From IMG/VR virus record IMGVR_UViG_3300038530_001278: 20,000 nt of DNA; one strand, written 5' to 3'. A program made the translations under genes and the position numbers. Positions 3,001-19,434 of the stretch are shown piece by piece. The number at the start of each line of letters is the position of its first letter. Position 1 is the stretch's first letter. The notes under the pieces were generated by a model, which saw only the letters and a program-made list of their open reading frames with translations, was not told where the DNA came from and made no database searches. The DNA is from an uncultured virus (IMG/VR IMGVR_UViG_3300038530_001278) (taxonomy: Duplodnaviria; Heunggongvirae; Uroviricota; Caudoviricetes).

Positions 3001-6000
3001 CTTTCTAGCATTCTCCATATACAGATTTCTAGATACGTATTTATATCTTGACTTACCTTGTGCATCTCTATAGTTTGCTTCATATGTTTCAGGATCGAAT
3101 ATAGCAGCAATCTTTGCTAGTTTATAAAGCTTATCGTTTTGTTTTAGACTTAATGGTTTTTTGTTATATCTATCTAGCTTTTGTAGTGTTCCTCTAAATA
3201 GTGTTTTTATATTACCAAACTCGTTCATTTCTAGCTCTGGAAAAGCTTCCTTCATTTTTTGTTCACCTAGCATGTATGCTGCCGCTGCAGGTTCTATACT
3301 CCATCCTAGTTTATCAAAAGCATTTACAAGACTTTCTACTTTAGTATAAGGACTTGCTGGGTTATTAAAAATAGCTTCTATTTCTTCTATAGCAAGACGT
3401 TTAGTTTTGGGATCTATATTACTACTTCTACTATACCATTTATTTAATATTTGATTTATAGGTCCGTTTTGTACAGATTCTATTATAACTGCTTTATTCT
3501 TTTCTTTTAATAATTTTATATAGGGTAAATTAAATTTATTAAATGCATTTGTGAAAGAAGCTTCTATAGATGGATTTGCTTTTATAGCTAATACAACTCT
3601 AGATAACTGATCATCATACCTAGCAGCTGCTTCTAATCTTTTCATTACATCTCCCTCATCTATTTGATCTGAGACTACTTTCATTATATGTCCAGATATT
3701 GCATGACCGTCTAGTGTTTTTAGTATTTCTTTAGTCCCGTACTTTTCTGATTGCCATGTACGTCTACCAAATATATCTTCGCTTGGTGTAGTTATAGTTT
3801 TTATAAACTGTTTTACTCTTTGTGGAAGAGACGCAATTGCAGATATTTCGTTCCAGGCTATACTATAATTAGGATCTAGAACGTCTGGATCTTGCTGTGT
3901 ATATCTATAGTTGTATGTTACAGCTGTAATTATATCACTTCTATCAAAGTCAGGAGAGTTTAATATAGCTTTCTGACGTCTTGCAAATCTCATTTGTTCC
4001 TTAAGAATCTTAGCTTCTTCTGGAGTATATATATCTTTAGTTTTAAAAGATACTAAAGTTATACCTTCAATATACTCATCTAGCAACTCATTGATAGTAT
4101 TAGTTACATCCGGTAGATCTTTTGGATCTTTCTTCATGTATATTATAGGATCTACAGGTCCGTCTATAAGCTGAGCAGTAAGCTGATTAATAAGATCTAG
4201 TCTTACACCATTGTTAAGTCTATTAACATCTATGTTTTCTAATCTATCTTCTTTATTTAATTCATCTACTATATCTTCAAAGGTTTTATTTTTTTCTGGT
4301 GTTGGTTCAGGTTCTTGTTGAGTTCCTTCAGTCTCTGGTTTTTCTAATACAATTGGATTACCATCTTCATCAAAGAACTGTCCCTGTCCTACAAAAGTGC
4401 CTTCTGGTTCTACAGGTGCTTCTTCTACTTTAAGTTTAAATATATCATCACTTACTTCTATGGACATAGTAGCATTAGCAAATCCACCAGGTCCCATAGA
4501 AGACTCAAAGTTATCAGGTTCTATTTCTGATCCGTCATTAGGTATACTCTCTTTAAAACTTGTTTCATCTATAGCTGCGATGCCTTCGTATTTAGTAATA
4601 TACTGATTTATCGTATCTATTATAGTCTTTATAGATACGTTACTTCTAAGTCTAACATTTGGTATTATCTTTTGATCTGTACCATTAGCTTGTCTTTGAG
4701 ATCCGTATATACTTAGTTTATATGAGTTTGTTTTTCTATCTAAATCTACACCTACGTTTACATATAGATTTCTAGATCCTGCTATAAATAAATTTAATTT
4801 TTTATTTATTCTATTTATTTCGTTTGTAAAGTGTTTTTGTGTGTACTTGCCTTCCTTTATTTGTTTGTTAAGTGTAATAATCTCTGCTTTTACTTCATCT
4901 AATCTTTGTTTTAGTTGTTTTGTATTTACTCGTTTAGGAAATATTCTTACCCATTCAACAACCTCACCTTGTTTTACTAGTGCAAAGTATCTACCTTCAA
5001 AGGTATTTTCATTAGGAAGCTTAGCAAACTCTTTTTTAGATGGTGTTTTACCATATATTATTTTCTTTTCAAGTCTATCGTATATAATATAGTCTCCGTC
5101 ATAAGTATGTGGAACTACTTTATTAGTTAAAGATATACGGTTTTGTTGGTTAGGGGTCGGAGTAATCTTTGCACTAACATTAAACTTAAATAAACTATCA
5201 TCTAGTATCTGTGGTTTTTCTAGAGTTGCATTAGGATACAATTTTTCTAGTTGGTCTAATGTTTGTTTTAATGTTTTGTAATTATTACCCCAGGCTTTCC
5301 ATTGTTCATCTGTAAATGTACCTACCTTATTAAAGTTTTTTACAAAAAACTCTTCGGTCATTTGATCTCCCTCTATCAAATTACCATCTATATCATAAAA
5401 TCTATTATTAGATCTTACTACACCTAAGATAGTACCGTCTTCTCTATCTCTTATTATTAAGAAAGATCCGTTCATGTTTATTAGCATGCCTGGATTCTTT
5501 TTATGTGTATCTGATAACTTTCTAGGTATATTTACAAATTCTACTTGTATTCTTTTTCTCAGGTTTGGGTCGGTTGTTAGTAACCTTTCTAGTGTTTCTC
5601 TAGATATAGTATTCATAGATGCTTCTTCTGATGCTACCTGTAACCAGTAAGTATCTAAAAAGTTATCTCTATGTCTTGGATCTGCTTCAGAAGATAGCGA
5701 GACTAGTTCTACTACGCCTTTTCCTTCAGTAACTCTAATGTTTTTACCTTCTTCATCTTTTTCATCTAGTATATATTGTTTCTTTCCATTTGGTCCAACC
5801 TCTACATTTAGAACTCTCCCGGTTTTATCTTTACCATATTTAATATGTGTAGGACCTGCTTCAGGAACCATTTCAGAAAATACTTTAGATTCTGCTTTCT
5901 TTTGTGCTGCCTCTTCTCTTCTTTGTTGTGCATCTGCTTCTTGTTGTGCTTCTATTTGTGCTTTTTTTCTTCTTTCAAAGAAGTTTTCTTTTTTCTTTTT

Positions 6001-8679
6001 TGACGTGCTTTCTTTTTTTAGCGGCTCTTCATTTTCTTTTTCTTTTTCTAATGTTGTTTTTTTAGCTTCGTTAATATCGTTTTGCAGATTCTCCCAAGTA
6101 TCAGGAGAAGTTAGTAGTTCATTTATTTTATCGTCTGCTTGTTTTATTATATTATCATACTTCTCAGATAAGGCATTATATACATCATCTATTTTCTGTT
6201 GATCATCTGCTTGTTTTACTTTTAACGCTTCAAACACATCTTTAAACTGCGGATCTTTTTGTAAAGCTTTAAGCAGTTTATTAAAAGCAGCTGGGCTTTT
6301 TGATGCTTTTCTATAGAGCTCATCAAGCTGTTCTCTTTGTAGTTGTGCTTTTGTTTTACCAAGAGCTAAAGTTCTTAATCCATTAATTATTGAGACCGGT
6401 ATATTTTCTATATCAGATAGTCTAGCTTTTTCCGGGTCTGACATAATATCTAGTAAACTATTATTAACACTTTGTAAGTTTTCTAAATATTTCTTTTGTG
6501 CCTCTAGTTTTTTTAATGTTTTGTTTCTTACTGGTCTCGTTAAATTTTTGTTTGCTCTTGTTTTAGCTATTCTTTTATCTAAGCTTTCTATTTTTTCTTT
6601 ATAGTTTTGATCAAGCAATAAAGACTGTCCTGCTATATACTGTCCTTTTGGAGACAAATAGCTATATGCTATCTCATTATCTTTCCATAAGGCAGTCATG
6701 CCTTCTACTCTTCGTTTTAGTTTATTATACTGATACCTACTAATATTACCTGCAGCGTATATATTACTTAATTTATCTAGTATTCGATCTGATTTTCCCT
6801 CAGCTATTAAGCTCATGAGATCTGGATCATACGCAGCATTAGTAATTGTTCGAACTCCTGCTCCTAATATAAAGCCAATAGCTCCTTCTCCTAGCATTTG
6901 TTCTATATCAAACAGCTGTGTAGGGTCATCTCTAAATTTACCTGCTCCTTGTGTTGCTTCTTCTGGTGCAAAGTAAGCATTGTATGTTTGTTTTGTTGCA
7001 TCTATTACTGCACCTTGAGCTATTTCTTCTGTTCCTTCTTCAATACCTGAGCTTAATCCTCTACCTAGTCTTGTAGTTATTCCTCCTGCTCCTATTCTTT
7101 CTAACCTTTCAAATACATTTTTTAGTATAGGACCTGTCATTTTATCTAGGAACTCTTTGCTATTAACTTTCATTCCTGTTCTTTCAGCAAAGTTGAATAT
7201 AGCTCTGTATATTTCATTGTTGCCTCTAACTCCCATCATTCTATTTGCTAACCGGTTTGTACCAAAACCATACTCTATCAGAGTATTTATAAATCCTACG
7301 GTTAGTCCCATAGTAGCTGCTTCGTCATCATCTAATCCATCTAGCTTAGCTTGTTTATATATCTCACCGGCATTTATCGGCATACCTCCAGCCATATGAC
7401 CCATCATACTTGATAGTTTAGCAGGAAACTTCTTACCTAATTTTTTAGCTAGAAACAATCCTCCTTTTGTAAAAAGCTTAGAACCTACACTACCCATTCC
7501 CCAGAATGATAATAGTGATGCTAGTCCACTTCCTAATCCATTAGAAAAAGAAGCTCCACTTGCAAATAAATCATCTGTTTGTTCAGCTGCAGATCTACTA
7601 AATCTATTGAACTCTGTATTAACTCTTGCTTCAGATGCAACTCTATCAGTCCATCCGTCTGGATTAGAATCCCAATCTCCTGTACCAAAGAATTTATTAT
7701 ATCCTGCTTCTGCTAAGTCTGTAGTTAACTCTGCAAAGTTTAATAAATCAGGAACTAAACCACCAAGAGTATGACTAAACCCATCATTAAAAGCTTGTAA
7801 TGCACTTTTAGCCATAACATTAGGACCATGTGCGTTCATTAATGCTCCTCCTATTCTTCTAAACTCTTCTTCATCTAAGGTTTTACTTTCTTGTAGTATA
7901 AAGTCTCCGCTTTCTTCATCATATACAGGATAGAATCCTCTGTAAGCATAAGGATCTACATTCTTACCAGCATAACTACTACCAAATATTCTATCTAGAA
8001 TATTGTTTTCTCTTTCTTCTTGAAGTCTTTGAGAATAAGCATCTGGAAATAGCTCTCTGTAGGCAGCCTCTAGTCTTTTTGATTCTATGTGACTTTCTGT
8101 ATATCCTCGTAGTCTTAGTTCTTCATCAGTATATTTTTCAAATTGACTCGGGTTAAAGATAGAAGTAGGACTATAATCATAGGTTCTTCTAGGTTTATAG
8201 CCATTGATGTCTCTACCCATTAATCTATCTAAGAAACTTGCTTCATCAGCAATGTCTTGTATATTAACTATTTCACCTTCGACAGTACGAACTTTACCTT
8301 TTCTAAATAGCTCTATAGCTTTTTGTTGATAGGGTGTATTTGCTTCTGCTTGTGGTGAAGTTTCTGTTCCTCTAGATCTTATAGGACCAAATATAGGTGC
8401 ATTCTCTGGTAAGAAATCTTTAGGTACATTATCTTCATCTGGACTTATAAAAAAGTCTATGTTTTCTTGAACATTTTGTTCTCTGTTTCTAATGTTTTCT
8501 TGAAACGCTGCAATATCTAAACTAGGAAAAGATATTCTAGTATCATCCGGAGTAAGATCTAGTACACCTAAAGTATTTGTTACTGGTTGTTTATTAGGAT
8601 CAGTCTGCTGTTCAAATCTACGAGAAGACGGTCCAGGAGTAAAACCACCAGATTGCATATCTTTCTTTTTCTTCTGCAT
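1..8679 (-). CDS. Giant virion-associated RNA polymerase polyprotein (crAss-like two-barrel RNAP), 3'-truncated by the window edge, at least 2893 aa
   Basis: Manual translation from ATG at 8679 (MQKKKKDMQSGG..., 2 nt after the upstream stop) shows no in-frame stop to base 1, which explains its absence from the ORF track. Contains FGVRIPVQTYHSMIPLKVVGFLEDSHGDTIVVPRQIGAVAGSDYDLDKLYL (DxDxD at 1012-1026), plus FVKRLAG, ANDAQVF (DAQ 2134-2142), FVDNAK and FINQPII, resembling crAss-like virion RNAP motifs (phi14:2 gp66 type, DFDID). Confidence 0.93.
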   Translation of the reverse strand, partial: MQKKKKDMQSGGFTPGPSSRRFEQQTDPNKQPVTNTLGVLDLTPDDTRISFPSLDIAAFQENIRNREQNVQENIDFFISPDEDNVPKDFLPENAPIFGPIRSRGTETSPQAEANTPYQQKAIELFRKGKVRTVEGEIVNIQDIADEASFLDRLMGRDINGYKPRRTYDYSPTSIFNPSQFEKYTDEELRLRGYTESHIESKRLEAAYRELFPDAYSQRLQEERENNILDRIFGSSYAGKNVDPYAYRGFYPVYDEESGDFILQESKTLDEEEFRRIGGALMNAHGPNVMAKSALQAFNDGFSHTLGGLVPDLLNFAELTTDLAEAGYNKFFGTGDWDSNPDGWTDRVASEARVNTEFNRFSRSAAEQTDDLFASGASFSNGLGSGLASLLSFWGMGSVGSKLFTKGGLFLAKKLGKKFPAKLSSMMGHMAGGMPINAGEIYKQAKLDGLDDDEAATMGLTVGFINTLIEYGFGTNRLANRMMGVRGNNEIYRAIFNFAERTGMKVNSKEFLDKMTGPILKNVFERLERIGAGGITTRLGRGLSSGIEEGTEEIAQGAVIDATKQTYNAYFAPEEATQGAGKFRDDPTQLFDIEQMLGEGAIGFILGAGVRTITNAAYDPDLMSLIAEGKSDRILDKLSNIYAAGNISRYQYNKLKRRVEGMTALWKDNEIAYSYLSPKGQYIAGQSLLLDQNYKEKIESLDKRIAKTRANKNLTRPVRNKTLKKLEAQKKYLENLQSVNNSLLDIMSDPEKARLSDIENIPVSIINGLRTLALGKTKAQLQREQLDELYRKASKSPAAFNKLLKALQKDPQFKDVFEALKVKQADDQQKIDDVYNALSEKYDNIIKQADDKINELLTSPDTWENLQNDINEAKKTTLEKEKENEEPLKKESTSKKKKENFFERRKKAQIEAQQEADAQQRREEAAQKKAESKVFSEMVPEAGPTHIKYGKDKTGRVLNVEVGPNGKKQYILDEKDEEGKNIRVTEGKGVVELVSLSSEADPRHRDNFLDTYWLQVASEEASMNTISRETLERLLTTDPNLRKRIQVEFVNIPRKLSDTHKKNPGMLINMNGSFLIIRDREDGTILGVVRSNNRFYDIDGNLIEGDQMTEEFFVKNFNKVGTFTDEQWKAWGNNYKTLKQTLDQLEKLYPNATLEKPQILDDSLFKFNVSAKITPTPNQQNRISLTNKVVPHTYDGDYIIYDRLEKKIIYGKTPSKKEFAKLPNENTFEGRYFALVKQGEVVEWVRIFPKRVNTKQLKQRLDEVKAEIITLNKQIKEGKYTQKHFTNEINRINKKLNLFIAGSRNLYVNVGVDLDRKTNSYKLSIYGSQRQANGTDQKIIPNVRLRSNVSIKTIIDTINQYITKYEGIAAIDETSFKESIPNDGSEIEPDNFESSMGPGGFANATMSIEVSDDIFKLKVEEAPVEPEGTFVGQGQFFDEDGNPIVLEKPETEGTQQEPEPTPEKNKTFEDIVDELNKEDRLENIDVNRLNNGVRLDLINQLTAQLIDGPVDPIIYMKKDPKDLPDVTNTINELLDEYIEGITLVSFKTKDIYTPEEAKILKEQMRFARRQKAILNSPDFDRSDIITAVTYNYRYTQQDPDVLDPNYSIAWNEISAIASLPQRVKQFIKTITTPSEDIFGRRTWQSEKYGTKEILKTLDGHAISGHIMKVVSDQIDEGDVMKRLEAAARYDDQLSRVVLAIKANPSIEASFTNAFNKFNLPYIKLLKEKNKAVIIESVQNGPINQILNKWYSRSSNIDPKTKRLAIEEIEAIFNNPASPYTKVESLVNAFDKLGWSIEPAAAAYMLGEQKMKEAFPELEMNEFGNIKTLFRGTLQKLDRYNKKPLSLKQNDKLYKLAKIAAIFDPETYEANYRDAQGKSRYKYVSRNLYMENARKLQEGRMNSLFETKFKNNLLKNKVSGIEIKMAGDFVEGNDTATNKTLTAKQRAVLMFSLFLEEDSEGYAYYTPHVIETKKSLYAIKLPKKIYFDGNITQEAIDDAYKSLFVREFERNLTPEEQLDSTNYFGILSILEKKTITAPNGETMLVKDYLKDRETLDGQEQFIKQNIILPMLQEVVRDLRERVEELGLLDEINKLVVTGPSVGNINSKIGNLAINYLIYGGNYTQLALGDSNFKDDKDFVKRLAGFNAAGLKKGNIGYKYVVIQDDILSEDEAFGQQGVSANDAQVFMTLEMYAVRELESENYQNDSQRKILEKLRDSLDDPDIVVTQGEINQLDLNSTKTVYEDGNRYFKKSDFIITKRMAEKQDVAGNPVLLNIYNALNAQKVMYLITESASKRKTPESLPSNYFSTADDAGQFNNLIQEGEMQYERDQVVNRTKSKYGLETYATQAKQLHDLIGSVVVGDGRAIVEAMNQASADSKNTFYQLINAIVNDPDNIELLKQIIVNNNKGIRNEETLNKLETLSEDLPDVRSLIIQSIVDIFNRDALRSEVVGGQATLASSSFMVNPQTGQPLKIHRNKNGAIEYAEILASRKFFNLNEFTNIKDVPTKLLTAFGVRIPVQTYHSMIPLKVVGFLEDSHGDTIVVPRQIGAVAGSDYDLDKLYLHRYASTVQGNTRVLLDNEPNLQQYKEYWSNHQYVKLAQQVYKIGPTEAMQRLGLLNEEGQAVYTHPQVSHNKMLDNMFEVFNRPEVQEVMFTPATAGQAQTFVDMYGEREVSKSPFTVTGILDYHNENRRSAQGVGISANGNSAYSILTQFGEDMLAKPTGVIFDGKEYKSYTIQKEDDIGSDLNITEGVRSKFDSISSIITLFVDNAKLGLAAQVNLSSDMTTVLLDLIAVGAGQLRSLLFINQPILKYYTKLQETTTIPSNYKGQNYALDLIRAKVKQGNPKKNIDITSSNMDQDIKGPFNIEEILQEGPRTDAEADFLSRQAGILATFKS

Positions 8680-8681
8680 CT

Positions 8682-10553
8682 TTATGGTATTTCATTTAGC
8701 TTTGTTAATTCTGTAGGTCGTCTAAACATAGCCCCACTTGTTGCTTTTATAACTTCTGGAAGTATTCCTTGTCTTATATTATCAAGTACGTTTTGTTGTC
8801 TTGGAGTTAATTGTCTTCCTGCACGTACAGATGCTAATATTCCATTAACTTCATTTATAGCTGCAGCAACAATAGGACTACCTGCACCAGGTTGTAGTAT
8901 TTTTTGGTATTGTTGCAATCTTTGTTTTGTACTATGGAAGTCTGTTACTCCTCCTACAACTCTATATCCTGGCATCAATCCTCCTCCTGGAGTTCCTACA
9001 TTAAATACAACAGACTCAACAGGTGTAGGATCAGCAAGAACAAATCCTTGACTTACTTCTCCCTTTTCATCAAATACTTCATATTGTACTTTTGGTTTTT
9101 GTTCCACAATCAATGCTCTTCCATCTGTCATATTTAAATAAGTAACTTCTTGTCCATTAACATTTACACTTTTAGGTATAAATGATTCAAGATTTCTTTC
9201 TAGTTTATTTGAACCTCCAATAAATCCTCCAACTTTTCCACTAAAAGGTAGCTCGTTTGCAAAGTTTGCTTGTGTTTCTGCGTTCCATTCTAGACCTTGT
9301 TCTTTAAGAGCATCTGCTATATCTTGTGTTCTTAATCCAAATGCACCAGAACTCATGTCTGCAACTATAGGAACTAACTGAGCTGTTCCTGTTCTTCTAG
9401 CATTATAAGATTGTGTAGAAGGACCATCTGTAAACTTTGATCTAGAAACAAGATTACCACTAGCATCTGTTAAATCAATTATTTTTCCAGGTAATTGTCT
9501 TTGTCTAATATCCTCTTGTGAATAATTTGTGTTAATAGCATCTGCACTTGAATAGTATGATGCTTCATCATCTCCTGCCATACCCAAAATATTATAATCA
9601 TCTTCTTTAAAGCCTCTCATGTCTCCTTCAATGTATTGAGTTCCAAAGTCTGTTGGTAATGTTGTAGTATCTTGATTAGCTGCTAATAAAGCATTTCTAT
9701 AACTTGTATTTAAGTTAATACCTTCTTGATTATAAACAAACTCATTACCTACGTTTTGTAGTTGTGATTTCCATACATTATCAAATGCAGTCTTATCAAA
9801 AGGCTGTCCACTAAACTGAGCCTGTGCTTGAGCATTCTCTAACGACTGTTGATATTCTTTAGTTCTTGTTAAATCATCAAACACAGAGTTTACAATAGCG
9901 TCTATTCTTGGTTGAGACACTCCTTGACTAGTTAATACATCAAAGAACTGATTAACTTTATATCCTTTATTAGCTTTTAGATTTTCAAAGAAAGCTTCTA
10001 GTGCTGGTCTTCTATCTACAGTAGATCCTATATATGATTGATAAGCTTGAGGCGTACCATCTGGACCCATTGTAGTAAAGTTAGGATCTGATAAGTATAT
10101 AGGAGCAAGTCCTTTAACTCTCATTTCATCTAGTATTTTTTGATCTGCATCAAATTTCTTTTTGTTATCTATAGCTTGGTATAACCATGGATTTTTAGAT
10201 ACGTCTTTTGCTAGTCCTCTAACAAACTGATCGCCTTTTTCAAAAGCACCTCCTGTATCTTGTACAAAAGTATCTATCTGATCTTGTAATCCTTTGATTA
10301 AATTTTGTTTTTCAATAGAGTCTCCCTCCATAACTTGAGCAGCTGCTAATGCTTCTTGTAAACTATCTTTGTAATCTGCTACTCTTCTGTATTCTTTATT
10401 TAGTCCTTCCATAGCTGTTTGTACAGCTGTAACCGGAACGTCTGTATATAACTTACCTAATGAGGCTAGATTCATATCATCAAAAGGACTTCTCCTTCTT
10501 CTTCTACCTCTATAGTATTCTCTTGGTCCGTAATATCCTGGATAATAACTCAT
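8682..10553 (-). CDS. Putative virion cargo/ejection protein, 623 aa
   Basis: Long ORF tightly coupled between the cargo genes and the RNAP gene, the position of cargo proteins in crAss-like phages. Helical N-terminal half and a Tyr/Arg-rich N-terminal arm. Function inferred from position only. Confidence 0.65.
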   Translation of the reverse strand: MSYYPGYYGPREYYRGRRRRRSPFDDMNLASLGKLYTDVPVTAVQTAMEGLNKEYRRVADYKDSLQEALAAAQVMEGDSIEKQNLIKGLQDQIDTFVQDTGGAFEKGDQFVRGLAKDVSKNPWLYQAIDNKKKFDADQKILDEMRVKGLAPIYLSDPNFTTMGPDGTPQAYQSYIGSTVDRRPALEAFFENLKANKGYKVNQFFDVLTSQGVSQPRIDAIVNSVFDDLTRTKEYQQSLENAQAQAQFSGQPFDKTAFDNVWKSQLQNVGNEFVYNQEGINLNTSYRNALLAANQDTTTLPTDFGTQYIEGDMRGFKEDDYNILGMAGDDEASYYSSADAINTNYSQEDIRQRQLPGKIIDLTDASGNLVSRSKFTDGPSTQSYNARRTGTAQLVPIVADMSSGAFGLRTQDIADALKEQGLEWNAETQANFANELPFSGKVGGFIGGSNKLERNLESFIPKSVNVNGQEVTYLNMTDGRALIVEQKPKVQYEVFDEKGEVSQGFVLADPTPVESVVFNVGTPGGGLMPGYRVVGGVTDFHSTKQRLQQYQKILQPGAGSPIVAAAINEVNGILASVRAGRQLTPRQQNVLDNIRQGILPEVIKATSGAMFRRPTELTKLNEIP

Positions 10554-12134: not shown

Positions 12135-14654
12135 TTATATATTTTTTAAGTAATCTTCAACATTAGTTTTTAATCTATCGGAGAAAACAAACCCTGCATC
12201 TAATGCTTGGTTAGTTTGTGAACCAAATCCGGTGTTACCACCTTTTACTCCTATACCGCCTGAGGGTGCATCATGCGTGTCTCCTACAAATTTAAACATA
12301 TTTGGTCCAATTTTACGCACTTCTCCGTGTTTATCTGTCTTTGGCGGGTTATTTGCAGGTGCCATCATTAGCTCTCCTCCTTCTACCGTATAATCAGCAT
12401 CAGGTATCATACCGCCATCCTTAGCATAGTAGCTATAATTATCAACTCCCTCTGTAGGGTATTGACTTAACACACTAGCTGCTTGTACTTGATCTTGTGC
12501 AGACTGTGAAGCTAGTCTATTATTTAATCTATTTTCTTTATCTGCTTTCATTTTTGCTAATAGTTTTTTGTGTTGGCTTTTTCCTAATAGTCCACCACCT
12601 ATAGCACCTAGAACTCCACCTACTATAGCTCCTACAGGACCAAGTGCCATACCCAGAGATGCTCCTTGACCTGCCATATTAATTGCTTGTGCTGTTCCTG
12701 CCTCGCCTGGTGTAATCTCTGATGCATCATCACCTAAACTTGCTTGATAAATACCGCTACCTATAGTTCCTAGCTGATCAAACGGTATAGCTGACATTGT
12801 TTTAGCAAACTTACTTTGTCCTCCTCCAGAACTATTACCTTGATTTCCACTAGTTCCACTAGTTCCGCCACCTGTATTAAACTTTTTCTTTTTAGGTAAT
12901 ACTTTTATTTTACCATTGTGTGTTCTTGCATATCTATGTGTAGCTGTTTCTCTACTAGGTATTAAAGTACCGCTATACCTTTTACCTCCGAACATCCAAC
13001 TTACGTTTCCTCCTTTACCCATTGCTGGTGGAAGTGGTAGAGGCTCTGTTCTTATAGGCATGGCTGATACATCTACTATAGGACTAGGAGATAATGTACT
13101 TACTGCTACTGGAGAGCGTTGGTATCTACCACTATCTAACATATTTTGATATCGAGCTAGTTCGTTATTGAGGTTTTGCATATTGCCTGTATATCTAGTT
13201 ACTCTATATCCACTTTCAGGATCAGCAAAATCATATTCTACAGGTCTTGAAGATATTCCTTTTCTAAAACTTCCTCCCATATTTTCCATTATTATAGGAT
13301 TTCCAGCATCATCAAACTTTCCAGAGAATATTTGTGTATGTTGTCCTCCTTCAGGTCCACCCGTGCTATAGTTACTTACAATTCTATCTCCTGGTTGTAA
13401 GTCTGCGTATGATTGTGGGTTAATAACTTCCATTCCCATACCGGCAGGATTTGCTTGTATCATAGAATTCATCATAGCATTACCTGAAAAGATAGGCAAT
13501 CTACCAGGATTATAAGTACGACTACCATCTGGAGATTCAACTTCTCCATGTAATTCAGCTCCTGCTTCAGCTAATATTCCACAGCCGTAACTTGTACAAC
13601 CATAAGCATTTTTATTTTGTTCCTGTAAAGAGCTTAAATAATTAAACGTAGGACCTATAACTTCAGTTGAATCTACACTTTTTTGATTATATGGATCTCT
13701 ATTTCTTTCTTCTGCCGTAGCATATTTAGGTAGTTGATCTTGTATGTTTTGTTGAAACTGCTGTAATCTTTGTTGTTCTGCAGCCATAGCAGCATTTATT
13801 CTTGCCATTTCTGCATCTATTTGTTTTTTAGTCATCATCTTATCAGAGGACTGTGTGTCAGCTACGCTACCTCCTCCTTGTAAATCATCTTTATTATATG
13901 TTTCATAATAAACACGTAAACCTTCTTCTCCTCTTTTAGGATCAAGTGTGACTTGATTTTGTATATTAAAGTTTTGTGGTAAATAAGGTAAGTTAAAACT
14001 TGTTTGTCCTTCATTTATTCTTTTTTGTATTCTAGCATCTCTTAACTGATCTAATACCATACCTGTTCTATCATCACCATAACCAAAAAACATTGTATCA
14101 TTAGGTTGAAGATTAACTCTTTCAGCAAACTCATTATAAGTAGGTATGTTAAACTGTCTCTGTAGTTTTCTATCTTGAAATATTGGTGTTTTACCTCCAG
14201 CTTGAAATTGTTGTGTACTTAGTTTTGTCCCTTTATTAAGTACTTTACTAGCTACTTTTGCAGTTGTAGGATTTAATCCTGATGCTTTTAATGGTCTGGC
14301 AAAAGGGAACATACTTGCAAAACTCATTGCTGCATCTCCATATTTACCACCAGCCAAAGACTCCACACCTTTATAAAAAGTTCCAGGTATATTAGCCATA
14401 TTAAACGCTATATCCATAGGTTGTGATTCCACATTACCTGCTTCTAGAGCTTTATCAAAGTTATAAGGTAAATTCCCTGTTTGGAACTTCTGTCTTAGAG
14501 ATTGAAAAGGGTACTTAATAAAAGAACGTACATCGCTACCAAACTCCTGTAAAGCTGTAGGAGCCTCAGAGATCATAGCCTGCCCTGGGACAGGTGGAGG
14601 AGGAGTACCTCCCATTTGTTTTTTTCTAGGATCGTATGTATATTTTTTATTCAT
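12135..14654 (-). CDS. Putative virion cargo protein with NlpC/P60-like peptidase domain and glycine-zipper membrane segment, 839 aa
   Basis: GCTSY...LQPGDRIV...QHTQIF (Cys at 13596-13598, His at 13338-13340); GASLGMALGPVGAIVGGVLGAIGGGLLG glycine zipper; C-terminal VEGGE...GDTHDAPSGGI...FVFSDRLK block that I recall from crAss-like cargo proteins. Confidence 0.72.
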   Translation of the reverse strand: MNKKYTYDPRKKQMGGTPPPPVPGQAMISEAPTALQEFGSDVRSFIKYPFQSLRQKFQTGNLPYNFDKALEAGNVESQPMDIAFNMANIPGTFYKGVESLAGGKYGDAAMSFASMFPFARPLKASGLNPTTAKVASKVLNKGTKLSTQQFQAGGKTPIFQDRKLQRQFNIPTYNEFAERVNLQPNDTMFFGYGDDRTGMVLDQLRDARIQKRINEGQTSFNLPYLPQNFNIQNQVTLDPKRGEEGLRVYYETYNKDDLQGGGSVADTQSSDKMMTKKQIDAEMARINAAMAAEQQRLQQFQQNIQDQLPKYATAEERNRDPYNQKSVDSTEVIGPTFNYLSSLQEQNKNAYGCTSYGCGILAEAGAELHGEVESPDGSRTYNPGRLPIFSGNAMMNSMIQANPAGMGMEVINPQSYADLQPGDRIVSNYSTGGPEGGQHTQIFSGKFDDAGNPIIMENMGGSFRKGISSRPVEYDFADPESGYRVTRYTGNMQNLNNELARYQNMLDSGRYQRSPVAVSTLSPSPIVDVSAMPIRTEPLPLPPAMGKGGNVSWMFGGKRYSGTLIPSRETATHRYARTHNGKIKVLPKKKKFNTGGGTSGTSGNQGNSSGGGQSKFAKTMSAIPFDQLGTIGSGIYQASLGDDASEITPGEAGTAQAINMAGQGASLGMALGPVGAIVGGVLGAIGGGLLGKSQHKKLLAKMKADKENRLNNRLASQSAQDQVQAASVLSQYPTEGVDNYSYYAKDGGMIPDADYTVEGGELMMAPANNPPKTDKHGEVRKIGPNMFKFVGDTHDAPSGGIGVKGGNTGFGSQTNQALDAGFVFSDRLKTNVEDYLKNI

Positions 14655-15118
14655 TATTTATTTCTTATTGATTGAAACTTTTCTGCCCCACGCGAACCAA
14701 AATAAGCCACATACACGGTAACCAAAAGTGTCTGCAATAAATCTACCCAACCTTCAGATACACCAAAGCTCCACTCAAAACTATCTAGTAGTATAAGTAG
14801 AACCATAGATATAGTTAAGAAGATCAAACTCAGAGGTCTAGTATTCTTACTTAACCATGAGTCTGATTTCATATCGCTTTCCCATCGCTTTGAGACTTCT
14901 TGCATCTCAACCATATCAAGCTCAAGCAGTTTCATTGCTTTCTCTTTATCTTCTGGGGGTAGTACAGTGTCCGGTTCTTTTTCAATTAAACCTTTTACTA
15001 CACCTAATACTCCTGCATCAGGTAAAACATCTCCAACAACACCTAATATACTAGGTACTTTCTGAGACAGAAACTGTCCCACTTTAGTTTCAGAAAACTT
15101 CTTTTTTGGCTTACTCAT
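14654..15118 (-). CDS. Holin, 3TM (GTA-type) family-like, 154 aa
   Basis: Amphipathic N-terminus, then RWESDMKSDSWLSKNTRPL followed by two hydrophobic helices ending AYFGSRGAEK, the pattern of the 'holin of 3TMs' family. TAATG overlap with the downstream gene. Confidence 0.75.
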   Translation of the reverse strand: MSKPKKKFSETKVGQFLSQKVPSILGVVGDVLPDAGVLGVVKGLIEKEPDTVLPPEDKEKAMKLLELDMVEMQEVSKRWESDMKSDSWLSKNTRPLSLIFLTISMVLLILLDSFEWSFGVSEGWVDLLQTLLVTVYVAYFGSRGAEKFQSIRNK

Positions 15119-15122
15119 AATA

Positions 15123-15410
15123 TTAACATTTCCACCTACGTCTAGCTTGTCTTATTCTAGAGTTCGGATTATTTCTAGTTTTTGCACTAGATCTCTTGAG
15201 TTGTCCCAGGCTTCTAGCACAATACGATTTACGTCTTTTAGCAGCTTTACTGCCTCTTTTAACTTTGCCGGTAACTGCAGTCTTTAGTTTAGATCCAGGG
15301 TTAGCACGTCTATATGCTCTGACTCCTTTACGAGTCATGCCTGCACCTGACTTAGTTTTACGATAGTTACCGCCTTTGCCAGTAGTTCTCCTTATAGCTT
15401 TCTCTGCCAT
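15123..15410 (-). CDS. Small highly basic phage protein, 95 aa (RRKSYCARS...RRWKC type; DUF6321-like by recollection)
   Basis: Very Lys/Arg-rich, with RRKSYCAR and terminal WKC motifs familiar from aquatic phage proteins. Start overlaps the upstream stop (TAATG). Confidence 0.8.
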   Translation of the reverse strand: MAEKAIRRTTGKGGNYRKTKSGAGMTRKGVRAYRRANPGSKLKTAVTGKVKRGSKAAKRRKSYCARSLGQLKRSSAKTRNNPNSRIRQARRRWKC

Positions 15411-15580
15411 TATTTCTTCTTTTTTCTTTTCTTAGCTGTTTTTGCAGCTCTTCTGAAATTAGCAGCTGTAGGAGCTCCTTTAGAACCTGGTTTTCTCATT
15501 TTTTCACCAGATCCTGCTTTAATACGCTTTCTTTTAGCGTGTATGTTTGCGTACAAACCTTTTTTCTTCTTTTTTGCCAT
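15410..15580 (-). CDS. Small basic protein, 56 aa (MAKKKKKGLYANIHAKRKRIKAGSGEKMRKPGSKGAPTAANFRRAAKTAKKRKKKK)
   Basis: Manually translated, below the ORF-track cutoff. ATG 15580, TAA 15410-15412 overlapping the next ATG. The GLYANIHAKR motif is familiar from marine phages. Confidence 0.85.
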   Translation of the reverse strand: MAKKKKKGLYANIHAKRKRIKAGSGEKMRKPGSKGAPTAANFRRAAKTAKKRKKKK

Positions 15581-15588
15581 AATAATTA

Positions 15589-15711
15589 TTATTTACATCC
15601 GTCTTTACGGAATTTTTTTAAACTTAACATACCACCATGGGCGTAAGAGTAAGATCTTTTCTTCTTCTTACGTTTTGTTGTTCCACCTTTTTTCATGCAT
15701 CCACACCCCAT
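15589..15711 (-). CDS. Small basic protein, 40 aa (MGCGCMKKGGTTKRKKKKRSYSYAHGGMLSLKKFRKDGCK)
   Basis: Manually translated. Fills the gap between neighbours (2 nt after the upstream stop) and carries two GG motifs (MKKGG, YAHGG). Confidence 0.75.
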   Translation of the reverse strand: MGCGCMKKGGTTKRKKKKRSYSYAHGGMLSLKKFRKDGCK

Positions 15712-15713
15712 GA

Positions 15714-15881
15714 TTAAACATTTCTTCTTTTGATATTCATAGCAGCTAGCATTCCGCCACCCATCTTACTGAGCTTTTTATCTAGCATACCACCTATTGC
15801 ATACGGAGTTGGTTTATCCGTAGATCCGCCTGCTTTCATCTTCATCTTTTTCTTTTTCTTTGATTTTGTATGATATCCCAT
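15714..15881 (-). CDS. Small basic protein, 55 aa (MGYHTKSKKKKKMKMKAGG...YAIGGML...)
   Basis: C-terminal part of ORF-track entry 15714..15974. Start reassigned to ATG 15881 because the longer version overlaps the 15907-16056 gene. Carries GG motifs. Confidence 0.75.
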   Translation of the reverse strand: MGYHTKSKKKKKMKMKAGGSTDKPTPYAIGGMLDKKLSKMGGGMLAAMNIKRRNV

Positions 15882-15906
15882 AACTAAAAATTTATAAATT
15901 AAACAA

Positions 15907-16056
15907 CTATTTACCGCTATGCTTTTTTTGCACAGCAAAATTATACGATAAGCTTGCTCCTTTGTGTTTAACAAACTTGCCCGTATGTTTCATAAGTTTA
16001 GGGCTACCTTTACCAGCTTTCATCCAGTGATACCCCTTTGGTGCTTTTACTTTCAT
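15907..16056 (-). CDS. Small basic protein, 49 aa (MKVKAPKGYHWMKAGKGSPKLMKHTGKFVKHKGASLSYNFAVQKKHSGK)
   Basis: Manually translated. ATG 16056 one base after the upstream TAA, TAG stop at 15907-15909. Confidence 0.8.
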   Translation of the reverse strand: MKVKAPKGYHWMKAGKGSPKLMKHTGKFVKHKGASLSYNFAVQKKHSGK

Positions 16057-16057
16057 A

Positions 16058-16222
16058 TTAATGCCATCTAAATGTTATTGCAATTATAATTAAATAAATA
16101 TTTAGTTCATACCAATCTTCGTCTGCATATTCTGGTATTCTATCATCTTTACTAAAATAAGTAAATCCTAATAAAGCACCATCTCCTAAGAGACGCACAT
16201 GTATTAAACTAAATAAGTTCAT
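16058..16222 (-). CDS. Small hydrophobic protein, 54 aa (MNLFSLIHVRLLGDGALLGFTYFSKDDRIPEYADEDWYELNIYLIIIAITFRWH)
   Basis: Manually translated. TAATG overlap with the upstream gene; hydrophobic beta-strand-like termini around an acidic loop. Confidence 0.75.
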   Translation of the reverse strand: MNLFSLIHVRLLGDGALLGFTYFSKDDRIPEYADEDWYELNIYLIIIAITFRWH

Positions 16223-16440
16223 TATTTCTTTTTCTTTCTACCTTTTCTAGACTTGCCTTTAACTGCAGATCCAACATCTCCTAATTGATTACCAACTTCT
16301 GCAATTGCATCTTTGACATCAACTAGTTCTTGTCCTACATTTTTAGCACGTCTTTTTACTTCTTTAACTGTTGCTATGGCTTTCTCGTCTACTGTGGTCT
16401 TACTCCATAACTTAGTCCACCATTTTTTAAATATATTCAT
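16222..16440 (-). CDS. Hypothetical protein, 72 aa, amphipathic Trp-rich N-terminus and basic tail
   Basis: ORF track; MNIFKKWWTKLWSK amphipathic helix, helical middle, KSRKGRKKKK tail; coupled to the next gene. Confidence 0.75.
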   Translation of the reverse strand: MNIFKKWWTKLWSKTTVDEKAIATVKEVKRRAKNVGQELVDVKDAIAEVGNQLGDVGSAVKGKSRKGRKKKK

Positions 16441-16449
16441 ATCCTTAAA

Positions 16450-16860
16450 TTAAAATTGTCCCGCTTGTGCGGCATCATCTACTGCTTCTTGTATGTCAGC
16501 TAGATCTGCAGGTAGCAGTAGGTCTAACCCTGCTTTAAATGCTGACTCTTTTATACCGTCATAAAACACTATGACTGTGGGTGCCATACGCACCTTGTAT
16601 TTCTTTTTTGCATTAGGAGCTTTTGATATATCAACTCTATAGTATAATGCATTTTCGATCTTATCCCATTCGGCAAAACAATTCTGTTCGTTAAACTCTG
16701 CCCAGAATTCAACTACAACAGGTTGAAGCTCATCATCACCAAAAGCAGACTTTTGATTAATTTTGTCTTCAAAGTTACTATCGTCTATCCAATACTCTGC
16801 TGGTACATCACTTTGTGAATACGAGTAAAAGGATACCAACAGTATTATTATAAATCTCAT
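16450..16860 (-). CDS. Secreted thioredoxin-fold protein lacking CxxC, 136 aa
   Basis: Signal peptide MRFIIILLVSFYSYS|Q; IDDSNFEDKI...VVVEFWAEFN...YYRVDI...KYKVRMAPTVIVFYDG follows the thioredoxin pattern including the cis-Pro position (APT), but only one Cys is present. Confidence 0.8.
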   Translation of the reverse strand: MRFIIILLVSFYSYSQSDVPAEYWIDDSNFEDKINQKSAFGDDELQPVVVEFWAEFNEQNCFAEWDKIENALYYRVDISKAPNAKKKYKVRMAPTVIVFYDGIKESAFKAGLDLLLPADLADIQEAVDDAAQAGQF

Positions 16861-17180
16861 TACCTCTGTTTTTGTATTTCATAGAGTCTTTCATCTATCT
16901 TATCTAACTTTTCTTTTATATCTTCTACATCATCTTGTGTATCTAATATTGTAGATCTAATCAATTCATCTTTTAGATCATACTCTGTTCTAGATATCTC
17001 AGGCTTAGGTAGTTCTTTAGCTTCTGCAATATCAGCTTGCAGAGTAAACCACATACCTGCCAACGTAACAATACCTGCAATTAAGCCTCCTATCGTTTTC
17101 AACGATATAGCGAAATCTGATTTTCCGTCACCGTCTACATCTATTCCCATAGACGTGTTTTCATCTAATTGTCGTGCCAT
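16860..17180 (-). CDS. Single-pass membrane protein with C-terminal coiled coil, 106 aa
   Basis: IGGLIAGIVTLAGMWFTL hydrophobic helix; heptad-like VEDIKEKLDKIDERLYEI; N-terminal DVDGDGKSDF (DxDxDG) loop. Confidence 0.75.
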   Translation of the reverse strand: MARQLDENTSMGIDVDGDGKSDFAISLKTIGGLIAGIVTLAGMWFTLQADIAEAKELPKPEISRTEYDLKDELIRSTILDTQDDVEDIKEKLDKIDERLYEIQKQR

Positions 17181-17191
17181 AGTTTTTTTGT

Positions 17192-17248
17192 TTAATCACC
17201 ACATAGACCGCAGCCTATGCAAAATGGACATATAAAATTTGTTTTCAT
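17192..17248 (-). CDS. Putative 18-aa Cys-rich micropeptide MKTNFICPFCIGCGLCGD
   Basis: ATG at 17248 lies one base after the barrel gene's TAA (same TAA-T-ATG junction as at 12135/12133 and 16058/16056); TAA at 17192-17194; fills most of the 69-bp gap; four Cys spaced CxxCxxCxxC. Confidence 0.6.
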   Translation of the reverse strand: MKTNFICPFCIGCGLCGD

Positions 17249-17249
17249 A

Positions 17250-18515
17250 TTATCTAAATGTATAATTAATTCCAAAGGTTGAGTTAAAAAATTCAGTATC
17301 CCACATCTTAGTATATTCACCTTCTATGAATACGCCTAAGGTCTTGCTTATCTTCCATCCCATGTTCAGACCCCCTTGGTAGTCTGTCCATTGTTCAAAT
17401 TCGTTTTCATCTCCTGTAACAGGATCATACTTCCATCCGTTTCTATATCCATAGTTTAGTTCGTCCCATTCTCTATCGTTAAATATATATTTATGATAAG
17501 GAAGTAAGACACTAGCATACATATGTATCCAGAAGTTAGATTTATAATGATAGAAATCAAAGCCTGCAATAGGTGATACAACGTGGTATGGTTCTACTGT
17601 TTGCCAGAAGTCTGCATTATATCTATTCATAAGTTGTCTAAATACAGTGTTTCTAAACTGTAAGTCTGTATATGCAACTATGTTTCCTTGATCATCTCTC
17701 CATAACCAGTCTCCCATTTGTTCTGTTGTACCATCATTATTATATACAACAGATGAATAGTACACATCTTCGTATCCGTATTGATAACCAAGAGTCCACC
17801 AATAATTTGTAGGAGTTTGATTACCAAACTCATCTGTTTCCATTTGATTTAACCAAAGCTCTATTGGATTAAATCCATAACCACGTTGATGAGTACGGTA
17901 GATTGCACCGGCTGATATGCTAAACTTTTTACCGATCGGTAGTCTAGCTCTAATTTCTGCTGATTTATATTCAAAGTCTCTAGATCCTAGTTTTCTTTGT
18001 TCTAGTTTAACTATATGATAATCACCAGTATGTCTAATAAAGAATCTGGAGTTGTTCCAGACCTTGCCTCTATGTCTTTCTTTTTCGTAGTGTAGTAAGT
18101 ATTCTAAACCGTCAACTGCAGAAGTAGGAGCAGATAATGCATTTTGTTTTTCTCTTTTTACATTACCAGTCCAAAAGTTATCCGGCTTTCTCTCGTATCC
18201 AAAACGACCGAGTTTACGTATTCCAAATCCATATCTATAATCAAAAGGGTGTTTAGTAGTTACATCTATTACTTCTGGTACATCATATAATCCTCCGTCT
18301 TCTGGTGGTCTAACAAAAAAAGACTCTTGCTCTACCTGTGCGTTATTGATGTCTCCAGCTACGTAAATAGTTCCGTACTTAAACAGCTGTTCGTATATTG
18401 ATTTGAAAATGTTCTTTTTTTCTTTCTCCTCTTGTCCATAGGTTACGAAAGAACATAGCAAGAATATTAAGGTAAGGATGTAAGTACCCTTTTTATAAGT
18501 ATAAGAATCTCTCAT
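17250..18515 (-). CDS. Putative outer-membrane beta-barrel protein, 421 aa
   Basis: Signal peptide ...YILTLIFLLCSFVTYG|QEE; alternating aromatic/hydrophobic strands (YRYGFGIRK, FSISAGAIYR, AGFDFYHY, GVFIEGEY); C-terminal beta-signal-like FGINYTFR. Confidence 0.78.
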   Translation of the reverse strand: MRDSYTYKKGTYILTLIFLLCSFVTYGQEEKEKKNIFKSIYEQLFKYGTIYVAGDINNAQVEQESFFVRPPEDGGLYDVPEVIDVTTKHPFDYRYGFGIRKLGRFGYERKPDNFWTGNVKREKQNALSAPTSAVDGLEYLLHYEKERHRGKVWNNSRFFIRHTGDYHIVKLEQRKLGSRDFEYKSAEIRARLPIGKKFSISAGAIYRTHQRGYGFNPIELWLNQMETDEFGNQTPTNYWWTLGYQYGYEDVYYSSVVYNNDGTTEQMGDWLWRDDQGNIVAYTDLQFRNTVFRQLMNRYNADFWQTVEPYHVVSPIAGFDFYHYKSNFWIHMYASVLLPYHKYIFNDREWDELNYGYRNGWKYDPVTGDENEFEQWTDYQGGLNMGWKISKTLGVFIEGEYTKMWDTEFFNSTFGINYTFR

Positions 18516-18532
18516 TTTTATTTAGTGTTTAT

Positions 18533-18635
18533 TATCAGAGAGAGTCAGCGAGCTGCTGTTACTATGTAATTGGAGATTCTATACTAAATTTTGGTATTCT
18601 TTGGAACTTTATTACTACGCTGACTATCTTTGATA
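18533..18635. repeat. Imperfect 18-bp inverted repeat (TATCAGAGAGAGTCAGCG / CGCTGACTATCTTTGATA), 67-bp spacer
   Basis: Arms 18533-18550 and 18618-18635 are complementary at 16 of 18 positions; they occupy the only sizeable intergenic region of the window. Confidence 0.75.
18600..18632 (+). promoter_or_regulatory. Match to Bacteroidota housekeeping promoter consensus (TTTG-N21-TATCTTTG), antisense to the genes
   Basis: TTTG at 18600-18603 and TAnnTTTG at 18625-18632 with a 21-nt spacer. Could be a chance match in AT-rich DNA. Confidence 0.3.
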
Positions 18636-18648
18636 TCTAAAATTAATA

Positions 18649-19434
18649 TTATCTGGCAGATAATCTCATATTCGCACTAACATCATACAAATATAAACTA
18701 TTTTGAGTTGAATTGTCAAATGAAAAGCGAGAAATTATGAACTTATCTACAAACCTTTTTTGCTCATACCAAGGTTTATTAGTATTTATGTTACTTGTTA
18801 TTACGTCTAAGTTACTGTCTATGAAGGGGTTATCTGTGTTATCAACAAGATCTCGAAACTTATTAACGCCCCATGTTCCTTCTGTATTAAACATATTAAA
18901 ATTACGTATATCTGATTGATTTGCTGAGGTTTTTCTCGACAGATCTAAATTACCAGAGCATTGATATGAATTATATATTAGTAAATCAGTGATTGTACTA
19001 TTATATAAGTATGCTCCGTTTGATGCAGTTGTCTTTGATATCCAGTTGACTGTAGAAAACATTTTAGTTCTATCTGGATTTTCATTGAAGACGGCATCTA
19101 CGTAACTTGCATATGTTGGTTGTGTATTTCCTACAAAATAAAATCTTGCATATTTATCAGCTACATTGTGTTTATATATATCATCATAATCTATAGAGTA
19201 TAATACATTTCTTGTATTAACCATTAGGTAAGGAGTATAATCATGATATGATACCCAGGATTGTGTATCTAATGAAAAAGATAACGTCCAACTATTATCT
19301 GTAAAATAAGTAGCAAGCTGTGCTGCAGTAATTAACTGTAATACTTTCTTACCGTTAACTGTTGCAACAACATAATACTGTCCTTGATTAAGAACTAGTT
19401 GACCGTCTTGTAATGTGTTTATATTAGTTGGCAT
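18649..19434 (-). CDS. Tail protein resembling the C-terminal part of the crAss-like tail stabilization/muzzle protein, 261 aa
   Basis: SWTLSFSLDTQSWVSYHDYTP, VFNENPDRTKMFSTVNW, IYNSYQCSG, EGTWGVNKFRDL, KPWYEQKRF recall motifs of that family; beta-rich composition. Confidence 0.6.
   Translation of the reverse strand: MPTNINTLQDGQLVLNQGQYYVVATVNGKKVLQLITAAQLATYFTDNSWTLSFSLDTQSWVSYHDYTPYLMVNTRNVLYSIDYDDIYKHNVADKYARFYFVGNTQPTYASYVDAVFNENPDRTKMFSTVNWISKTTASNGAYLYNSTITDLLIYNSYQCSGNLDLSRKTSANQSDIRNFNMFNTEGTWGVNKFRDLVDNTDNPFIDSNLDVITSNINTNKPWYEQKRFVDKFIISRFSFDNSTQNSLYLYDVSANMRLSAR

Follow-up and report, generated by a model that had tools for sequence, protein, structure and literature searches.

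We analyzed a 20,000-nucleotide (nt) stretch of DNA from an uncultured virus of the Caudoviricetes (IMG/VR record IMGVR_UViG_3300038530_001278), hereafter the window, whose minus strand carries all of its long open reading frames (ORFs). We focused on a block of six genes at positions 16058-18515 that encodes a predicted outer-membrane β-barrel protein (the barrel), a coiled-coil protein (TMCC) and a thioredoxin-like protein (TRXL)—which we refer to together as the trio—along with three smaller products. In order of transcription, with lengths in amino acids (aa), the block comprises:

17250-18515, minus strand: barrel, 421 aa
17192-17248, minus strand: Cys micro-ORF, 18 aa with four Cys
16860-17180, minus strand: TMCC, 106 aa
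16450-16860, minus strand: TRXL, 136 aa
16222-16440, minus strand: p72, 72 aa
16058-16222, minus strand: p54, 54 aa

From the barrel to p54, the first two junctions are gaps of 1 and 11 nt, the third is a 1-nt overlap, the fourth a 9-nt gap and the last another 1-nt overlap, so that both the ORFs and their tight coupling (from a 1-nt overlap to an 11-nt gap) are as described in an earlier, model-made reading of the letters alone (hereafter the original prediction). Thousands of homologues were recovered in the searches below, which indicates that the module genes are real rather than chance ORFs. The original prediction had further regarded the block as inserted between tail genes and the holin; an insertion foreign to the operon is not supported, as in most relatives the trio lies inside the lysis cassette.

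Three of the six genes are conserved together in related phage loci

Scanning IMG/VR with a profile gave at least 597 contigs that carry a barrel relative; we sampled the best 80 of these, a set biased toward closer relatives. ORFs in the related loci (88 records) were called with a simple script of our own and matched by phmmer, and removal of identical barrels left 79 loci; these loci share kinship, and the counts given here are therefore not counts of independent events. Among the 88 records, the barrel was found in 84, TMCC in 81 and TRXL in 77. Three of the four records without a barrel ORF have a match that runs into the end of the locus, and the remaining one (L007) is 947 nt long. Of the 60 non-identical loci that extend 1.5 kilobases (kb) or more to both sides, 59 have the complete trio, and the sole incomplete locus (L043) has a diverged thioredoxin-like gene that clusters with the TRXL family. 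The three genes are co-directional in all loci and mostly abut one another, with gaps of 20 nt or less at 73 of 76 TMCC–TRXL junctions and at 58 of 68 barrel–TMCC junctions. Barrel, TMCC and TRXL therefore occur together almost without exception, as translationally coupled genes, whereas the micropeptide encoded by the Cys micro-ORF (12/88 records), p72 (34/88) and p54 (9/88) are lineage-variable accessories, which narrows the six-gene unit of the original prediction to three.

We observed two gene orders for the trio, with the barrel first in most loci and last in about 12. In the barrel-last loci compared for protein length (L005, L034, L038, L039, L043, L047, L048 and L082), TMCC is longer by seven residues (one heptad) and TRXL is without an N-terminal extension of ~25 residues; these shifts may reflect a trade-off between partners, or may simply mark one lineage. 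On a quick tree of barrel sequences, different phage backbones were intermingled, suggesting that the trio has been exchanged as a unit.

Searches of deposited phages with the trio proteins and p72 (tblastn against 50,697 records) or with the region at the nucleotide level gave no match. Among bacteria, a search of 401 Flavobacteriaceae genomes with the barrel profile matched a single genome, one already known to carry it; scanning 185,579 species genomes with a pattern gave four loci, all in metagenome-assembled genomes with four unrelated lineage labels, which fits phage contigs binned by mistake; and a single-protein scan of species genomes gave no match. As judged from these searches, the trio is phage-only. 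The sole Flavobacteriaceae match (L006/L088; genome G003, contig C114) is a metagenome-assembled genome, with the trio at a contig end behind genes of bacterial appearance, among them one of the Hsp90 family. No other context that we encountered looked bacterial, and a prophage edge, a chimera or a rare copy on the chromosome could account for this one. PADLOC assigned 0 defense families among the 8 proteins of the module and its accessories.

Predicted structures of the trio proteins

The barrel begins with a hydrophobic, signal-peptide-like segment, as read from its sequence, and its AlphaFold2 model (36 diverse sequences; predicted local distance difference test (pLDDT) 78.6, predicted template modeling score 0.71) comprises 12-14 long antiparallel strands, together with helical and hairpin inserts and a low-confidence stretch at residues 103-133. 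Foldseek with this model returned outer-membrane barrels only. With VIA-align, the best matches were the β-domain of EstA (Z 13.4), Tsx (Z 13.2; root-mean-square deviation 4.0 over 194 residues), KdgM (Z 12.9) and NanC (Z 12.5), with OMPLA (Z 10.9) and LpxR (Z 10.7) lower. These scores (10.7-13.4) tie across unrelated 12-stranded families and come with no Pfam or PDB sequence match alongside; at the level of the model, a 12-stranded-barrel fold is identified and no single family is indicated. We considered the barrel as an OMPLA or LpxR relative and dropped both candidates, since their scores are not distinctive. The C-terminal motif resembles the consensus of the outer-membrane protein β-signal. 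With a signal segment, a closed barrel and this C-terminal motif all predicted, the barrel has the features of an outer-membrane barrel, and the model and structural matches concur with the original prediction that the 421-aa protein folds as a membrane barrel.

In sequence terms the barrel stands apart, with no match in Pfam, PHROGs, NCBIfam or PDB. Its homologues number 2270 at E ≤0.001 among 4518 candidates, and none of the 120 listed carries a Pfam domain. The nearest clusters in the ESM Atlas are all viral and without names, while the named clusters are generic barrel families at 0.93 with few shared features, which we treat as leads only. Nearly invariant charged or His residues lie in the strands (E138, R147, K170, R189, R207, H209, H331, D378 and E398). 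Compared with other 12-stranded barrels (Tsx, KdgM/NanC, autotransporter β-domains, OMPLA and LpxR), with which it shares the predicted fold, the barrel has no sequence family match and carries large extra inserts at about residues 210-309 and 338-377, as well as a long, conserved loop at 103-133. Within a close set, this loop is conserved like the strands (0.85 vs. 0.86), and conservation is lowest in the hairpin spanning 249-273 (0.56). If the N-terminus is periplasmic, as is usual, the loop is probably periplasmic in the model, and it is a possible docking site.

TMCC has a single hydrophobic segment at about residues 23-49, followed by an acidic, helical C-terminal part with a 3-4 heptad pattern. 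At least 6070 homologues were found, and in PHROGs it gave weak matches to families of unknown function only. Its sequence suggests the architecture of an inner-membrane spanin subunit (i-spanin), with a putative N-in/C-out topology. A second TMCC paralogue occurs in tandem in 11 loci and is separate from the first in 3. This paralogue has the same N-terminal transmembrane half and a different, Pro- and Gly-containing tail, and matches phrog_20984 (unknown function); examples include L014 7212-7517, L017 7185-7499, L032 7134-7448, L080 7176-7478 and L050 8578-8901, among others.

TRXL matches the thioredoxin family PF00085 (E 7.9e-6; 26.3 bits vs. a cut-off of 23.5), and its model (pLDDT 86) has thioredoxins as top Foldseek matches (TMt 0.7-0.77). 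In an alignment of 25 members, the position of the active-site Cys is never occupied by Cys, P94 at the cis-proline position is invariant, and the terminal Phe is nearly invariant. TRXL thus has the thioredoxin fold and cis-proline position in common with PF00085 members and differs from them in carrying a signal peptide and in lacking CxxC. The original description of a secreted thioredoxin without CxxC therefore stands, with the fold predicted and the motif missing in 25/25 aligned members, and without this motif TRXL is not expected to perform redox chemistry. We also considered TRXL as serving ribonucleotide reductase, and dropped this idea because the protein is exported and has no active-site Cys.

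The trio lies beside endolysins of unrelated families

We next clustered the genes neighboring the trio and annotated the cluster representatives, noting that antisense ORFs sometimes displaced real genes in this clustering. A recognized endolysin was found within 3 kb of the trio in 56/79 loci, and on the same strand in all 56 of them. These endolysins lie downstream in 44 cases and within 300 nt in 36, at a median distance of 187 nt. Restricting the count to the 44 loci with 3 kb or more of flank leaves 32 with an endolysin no farther than 3 kb away. The nearest endolysin is a Peptidase_M15_3 protein in 44 loci, a short Amidase_2 protein in 5, a PG_binding_1+Amidase_2 protein in 4, and a phrog_33083 endolysin in 3; going by these family assignments, four unrelated endolysin families occupy the place beside the trio. 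In addition, L083 has a glucosaminidase near the trio, and another locus has a PG_binding_1 protein directly after it. Gene transfer agent (GTA)-type holins with three transmembrane segments and small proteins with two such segments are frequent in the neighborhood. Lipoproteins of three families are also encoded close to the trio, in 18, 11 and 13 of the 79 loci, and the window has none.

Some phages also have genes for envelope chemistry close by. A PAP2-family phosphatase gene sits just after the trio in three loci (L013 8178-8732, L022 8676-9323 and L053 8113-8760), and genes for a family-29 glycosyltransferase, a DAHP-synthase-family enzyme and a cupin lie on the opposite strand near the trio (L046 6594-7382, minus strand; L051 6480-7259, minus strand).

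A candidate module for the outer-membrane step of lysis

The trio stands beside whichever endolysin the phage uses, and this is our main reason for assigning it to lysis. In our reading, to which we give a probability of roughly 0.42, the trio is a module of the lysis cassette that serves the outer-membrane step; its logic is that of a spanin, but it is not one. The original prediction had placed the products in the outer membrane, periplasm and inner membrane, and the trio alone is indeed predicted to span these three envelope layers; among the three functions that it had offered (superinfection exclusion or receptor masking, solute or metal uptake, and spanin-independent outer-membrane disruption), gene context favors disruption of the outer membrane at lysis.

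The analysis shows the gene linkage, the predicted folds, the phage restriction and the place beside endolysins and holins; the localization, topology, complex formation, timing and membrane-breaking activity in the scheme that follows are inferred. The three proteins would be co-produced from their translationally coupled genes and then exported, with the barrel inserted into the outer membrane by the host β-barrel assembly machinery (BAM) and TMCC anchored N-in/C-out in the inner membrane. In the periplasm, redox-dead TRXL would act as an adaptor or chaperone between the two, perhaps docking at barrel loop 103-133. With the peptidoglycan gone through the action of holin and endolysin, the complex would destabilize or fuse the outer membrane, with the barrel in place of a lipoprotein and doing a spanin's job.

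Comparison with known systems shows where this scheme departs from them. Like the two-component spanins (lambda Rz/Rz1; PMC6139136), the trio is positioned in the lysis cassette beside endolysin and holin and has an outer-membrane-directed subunit in tightly coupled genes, and TMCC resembles an i-spanin in being small, with one N-terminal transmembrane segment and a helical, coiled-coil-prone exported part. Where such spanins have a small Pro-rich lipoprotein, however, the trio has a β-barrel of ~400 aa with an ordinary signal peptide, and a third, thioredoxin-fold subunit is obligatory. The exported parts of TMCC and the barrel are without Cys in the window and without conserved Cys in the family, and so offer nothing for the intermolecular disulfides that are typical of many spanins. 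No lipobox of the outer-membrane spanin (o-spanin) kind was found behind a signal peptide among the six window ORFs, and none of the described spanin families matched in Pfam, PHROGs or NCBIfam at the thresholds used; with neither a lipoprotein partner nor a sequence relation, the trio does not belong to the spanins. Unimolecular spanins (T1 gp11 type) have the supposed role and the cassette position in common with the trio, but consist of one protein with a lipobox and a C-terminal transmembrane segment, as opposed to three proteins and no lipobox in the window.

Several observations weigh against a function in lysis. In 12/44 loci with at least 3 kb of flank, neither a recognized endolysin nor a holin lies within 3 kb, and in the near-identical L055 and L057 the trio stands alone among opposite-strand genes. 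Ribonucleotide reductase genes occur within 3 kb in 24/44 loci; with 18 of the 24 convergent and a median distance of 1257 nt, they look like a module border. Unrelated accessory genes, such as lambda bor, are known to land at the borders of lysis cassettes. The cassettes also contain other candidates for the outer-membrane step, namely p72 (28/79 loci) and a Pro/Asn-rich lipoprotein (18/79), and the exported part of TMCC is short, at ~57 residues. Finally, spanins are described as extremely diverse (PMC6139136), whereas the barrel is highly conserved, with a mean column identity of 70% across 21 homologues, loops included; conservation this unusually high hints at an enzyme or at a conserved host partner.

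Passage through the outer membrane at lysis is largely obscure in Bacteroidota phages: one survey reports unimolecular spanins as the only type in Bacteroidetes phages, and few of them (PMC12596118), and annotated spanins are also few among cultured flavobacterial phages as surveyed in PMC8776804. The trio is abundant, phage-restricted and located in lysis cassettes, and its parts are defined, which makes the question testable. Tentatively, and with somewhat less assurance than for the lysis assignment itself, we propose that it might be a fourth kind of outer-membrane-breaking machinery beyond two-component spanins, unimolecular spanins and disruptins—a barrel-anchored, three-layer complex bridged by redox-dead TRXL—that is widespread in uncultured ocean Bacteroidota phages and would explain how many 'spanin-less' phages of this phylum complete lysis. 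Should the trio break the outer membrane, it would add a new class to the lysis proteins, show two common folds in novel uses, and serve as a marker by which the lysis cassettes of thousands of ocean phages could be annotated; should it mask receptors, it would instead be an exclusion system of three parts that is widespread among phages. Consistent with the original prediction, which knew of no function for this combination, our literature search found no description of the trio. The main text of a preprint on phage-encoded barrels (10.64898/2026.10.24.761521) has no occurrence of thioredoxin, spanin or endolysin, and its supplements could list the barrel family.

Alternative explanations for the trio

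Receptor masking or superinfection exclusion is the main rival to a role in lysis, and we consider it unlikely at about half the weight of that reading. Here, the barrel and its two partners would occupy or hide an outer-membrane receptor, with the result that later phages fail to adsorb or that progeny escape loss on cell debris. Such a role would suit proteins that are envelope-targeted by prediction, a module that moves between phage backbones like an accessory gene set, and the two loci (L055 and L057) in which the trio lies apart from lysis genes. It also has a precedent that counts against lysis, as lambda Lom is reported to bind LamB and block superinfection (cited in 10.64898/2026.10.24.761521), and 1,603 barrel outer-membrane proteins are reported from huge phages in the same preprint. 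Lom and the trio barrel are both phage-encoded outer-membrane β-barrels; Lom, however, is small, 8-stranded, standalone and a member of the bacterial Ail/Lom family, whereas the trio barrel has 12-14 strands, is phage-restricted, always comes with two partners and lies beside lysis genes. Furthermore, exclusion proteins and exposed loops usually diverge fast, while the barrel remains 55-66% identical between very different phages, and the same barrel is found in different phages with presumably different receptors. Masking would also leave unexplained why inner-membrane and periplasmic partners are obligatory, and why endolysins adjoin the trio on the same strand in so many loci (56/79).

The remaining alternatives give the barrel or its partners other tasks. 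One idea, improbable in our view, makes the barrel the sole effector: an enzyme or pore of the outer membrane that acts on lipids or lipopolysaccharide to remodel the envelope (tied to lysis or not), with TRXL as its private chaperone and TMCC as an assembly or control factor. Thioredoxin folds without Cys can serve as chaperones, and the high conservation of the barrel, its nearly invariant charged and His strand residues, the barrel enzymes among its structural matches (OMPLA and LpxR) and the nearby genes, in some loci, for a PAP2 phosphatase or for sugar modification all speak for this idea; on the other hand, plain 12-stranded channels and autotransporter domains outscore those enzymes, we identified in the barrel none of the catalytic motifs of OMPLA, PagP, PagL or LpxR, and the barrel has no family match by sequence. 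Still less probable is a control of lysis timing, in which TMCC and TRXL would be a holin/antiholin pair with a periplasmic sensor and the barrel would provide outer-membrane input. The module does lie within the lysis cassette, TMCC paralogues are in tandem in 11 loci, and the arrangement recalls T and RI of phage T4, a one-transmembrane-segment protein with a periplasmic domain and its secreted partner; yet separate holin-like genes are already there, no known timing system has an outer-membrane barrel, and the PHROG search revealed no sequence link with T or RI. We regard as very improbable an uptake channel for solutes or nucleosides that feeds phage nucleotide metabolism, and the solute or metal uptake suggested in the original prediction found no support. 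The nucleoside channel Tsx is the second-best structural match and reductase genes are often nearby, but the Tsx score ties with those of unrelated 12-stranded barrels, most of these reductase genes are on the other strand as at a module border, the set includes no inner-membrane transporter, and TRXL, exported and without active-site Cys, cannot serve the reductase.

Accessory small genes vary between lineages

Six-frame translation of 957,359 bases yielded 12 occurrences of the micropeptide motif CP-x-C-x-GC, every one of them on the trio strand and within ~650 nt of a trio gene. The corresponding ORFs encode 12-18 residues in 6 distinct peptide versions. Third codon positions vary while residues are kept, and the 4 differences that the micro-ORF shows among the window and its two close relatives, L001 and L002, are all synonymous. 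In the window lineage the micro-ORF occupies the interval between barrel and TMCC, whereas three versions lie directly after TRXL and two overlap another ORF; sites outside the window lineage include L014 ~8890-8931, L025 ~7876-7920, L031 ~4532-4570, L069 ~3937-3978 and L082 ~2012-2053. On this sequence pattern we take the micropeptide as a real, mobile micro-gene outside the fixed trio, possibly encoding a small metal-binding peptide, and it constitutes a separate small puzzle. A function as a lipoprotein signal was considered and dropped, as the peptide has no lipobox and is too short.

The original prediction had listed p72 and p54 as two small membrane-prone proteins. This does not apply to p72, which carries a net charge of +12 and lacks any hydrophobic segment, and applies in part to p54, which is weakly hydrophobic. 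The soluble p72 protein has a Trp-rich N-terminus and a Lys/Arg tail and is predicted to be helical, and its relatives usually lie between trio and endolysin. It can be compared with the disruptin gp28 of phage phiKT, a protein of 56 aa with a charge of +7 and no export signal (10.1101/515445): both are small, cationic and predicted to be helical, have neither signal nor transmembrane segment, and neighbor lysis genes. No sequence relation between the two is known, and since gp28 is described as almost without homologues (10.1101/515445), none would be expected; p72 itself has relatives in only 34 of 88 records. By analogy of features, p72 is a disruptin-like candidate for outer-membrane damage, which we regard as only a lead, since many small basic proteins occur near the trio and charge is therefore weak evidence. 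The p54 protein is acidic. In five loci (L034 3893-4036, L038 7643-7786, L042 4406-4555, L056 3379-3522 and L067 1693-1836), the gene for its relative (47-49 aa) immediately precedes and overlaps that of the holin, suggesting that p54 may be a holin partner or an antiholin.

Genomic setting of the window

Three further features frame the block:

18649-19434, minus strand: protein with a crAss muzzle C-terminal domain, upstream of the barrel (PF25729, E 1.2e-6)
18516-18648, minus strand: 133-nt spacer with a long-range stem, arms ~8-11 nt (from RNA folding and relatives)
14654-15118, minus strand: holin, 154 aa (phrog_3427, E 3e-19), which marks the lysis cassette of the window

The nearest deposited relatives of the muzzle-domain protein are structural proteins of Flavobacterium and Cellulophaga phages (41 records, ≤33% identity), and the holin, ~940 nt downstream of the six-gene block, is related by tblastn to genes annotated as holin in Nonlabens and Vibrio phages. 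The window is part of an uncultured crAss-like phage, and its host is most likely a member of marine Flavobacteriia. Peptidase_M15_3 is absent from the records of two close relatives (73% and 82% complete), and the endolysin of the window lineage was not identified. Beyond the holin, an 839-aa protein (12135-14654, minus strand) has a Gly-zipper region, to which its weak 'tail associated lysin' match is confined; its residues 330-540 gave no PDB sequence match, and no catalytic domain was recognizable. A giant ORF at 1-8679 (minus strand; at least 2893 aa) had no Pfam match.

The spacer ahead of the barrel gene folds at -22.9 kcal/mol (z -2.67), with 1 of 200 shuffles equally good, in line with the structured intergenic region of the original prediction. 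A sigma-70 promoter scan, which is ill-suited to Bacteroidota, scored below the shuffle mean and was set aside. Both L001 and the more diverged L010 keep the stem arms unchanged around a loop that differs. As these relatives show no compensatory changes, the comparison points to a conserved element whose structure is putative. The spacer is possibly a regulatory element or the start of a transcription unit.

Finally, five very small genes, mostly Lys/Arg-rich, occupy 15123-16056 (minus strand) between p54 and the holin. They include DUF6321 and phrog_16028 members, and their relatives are scattered over related loci together with DUF5872 proteins.

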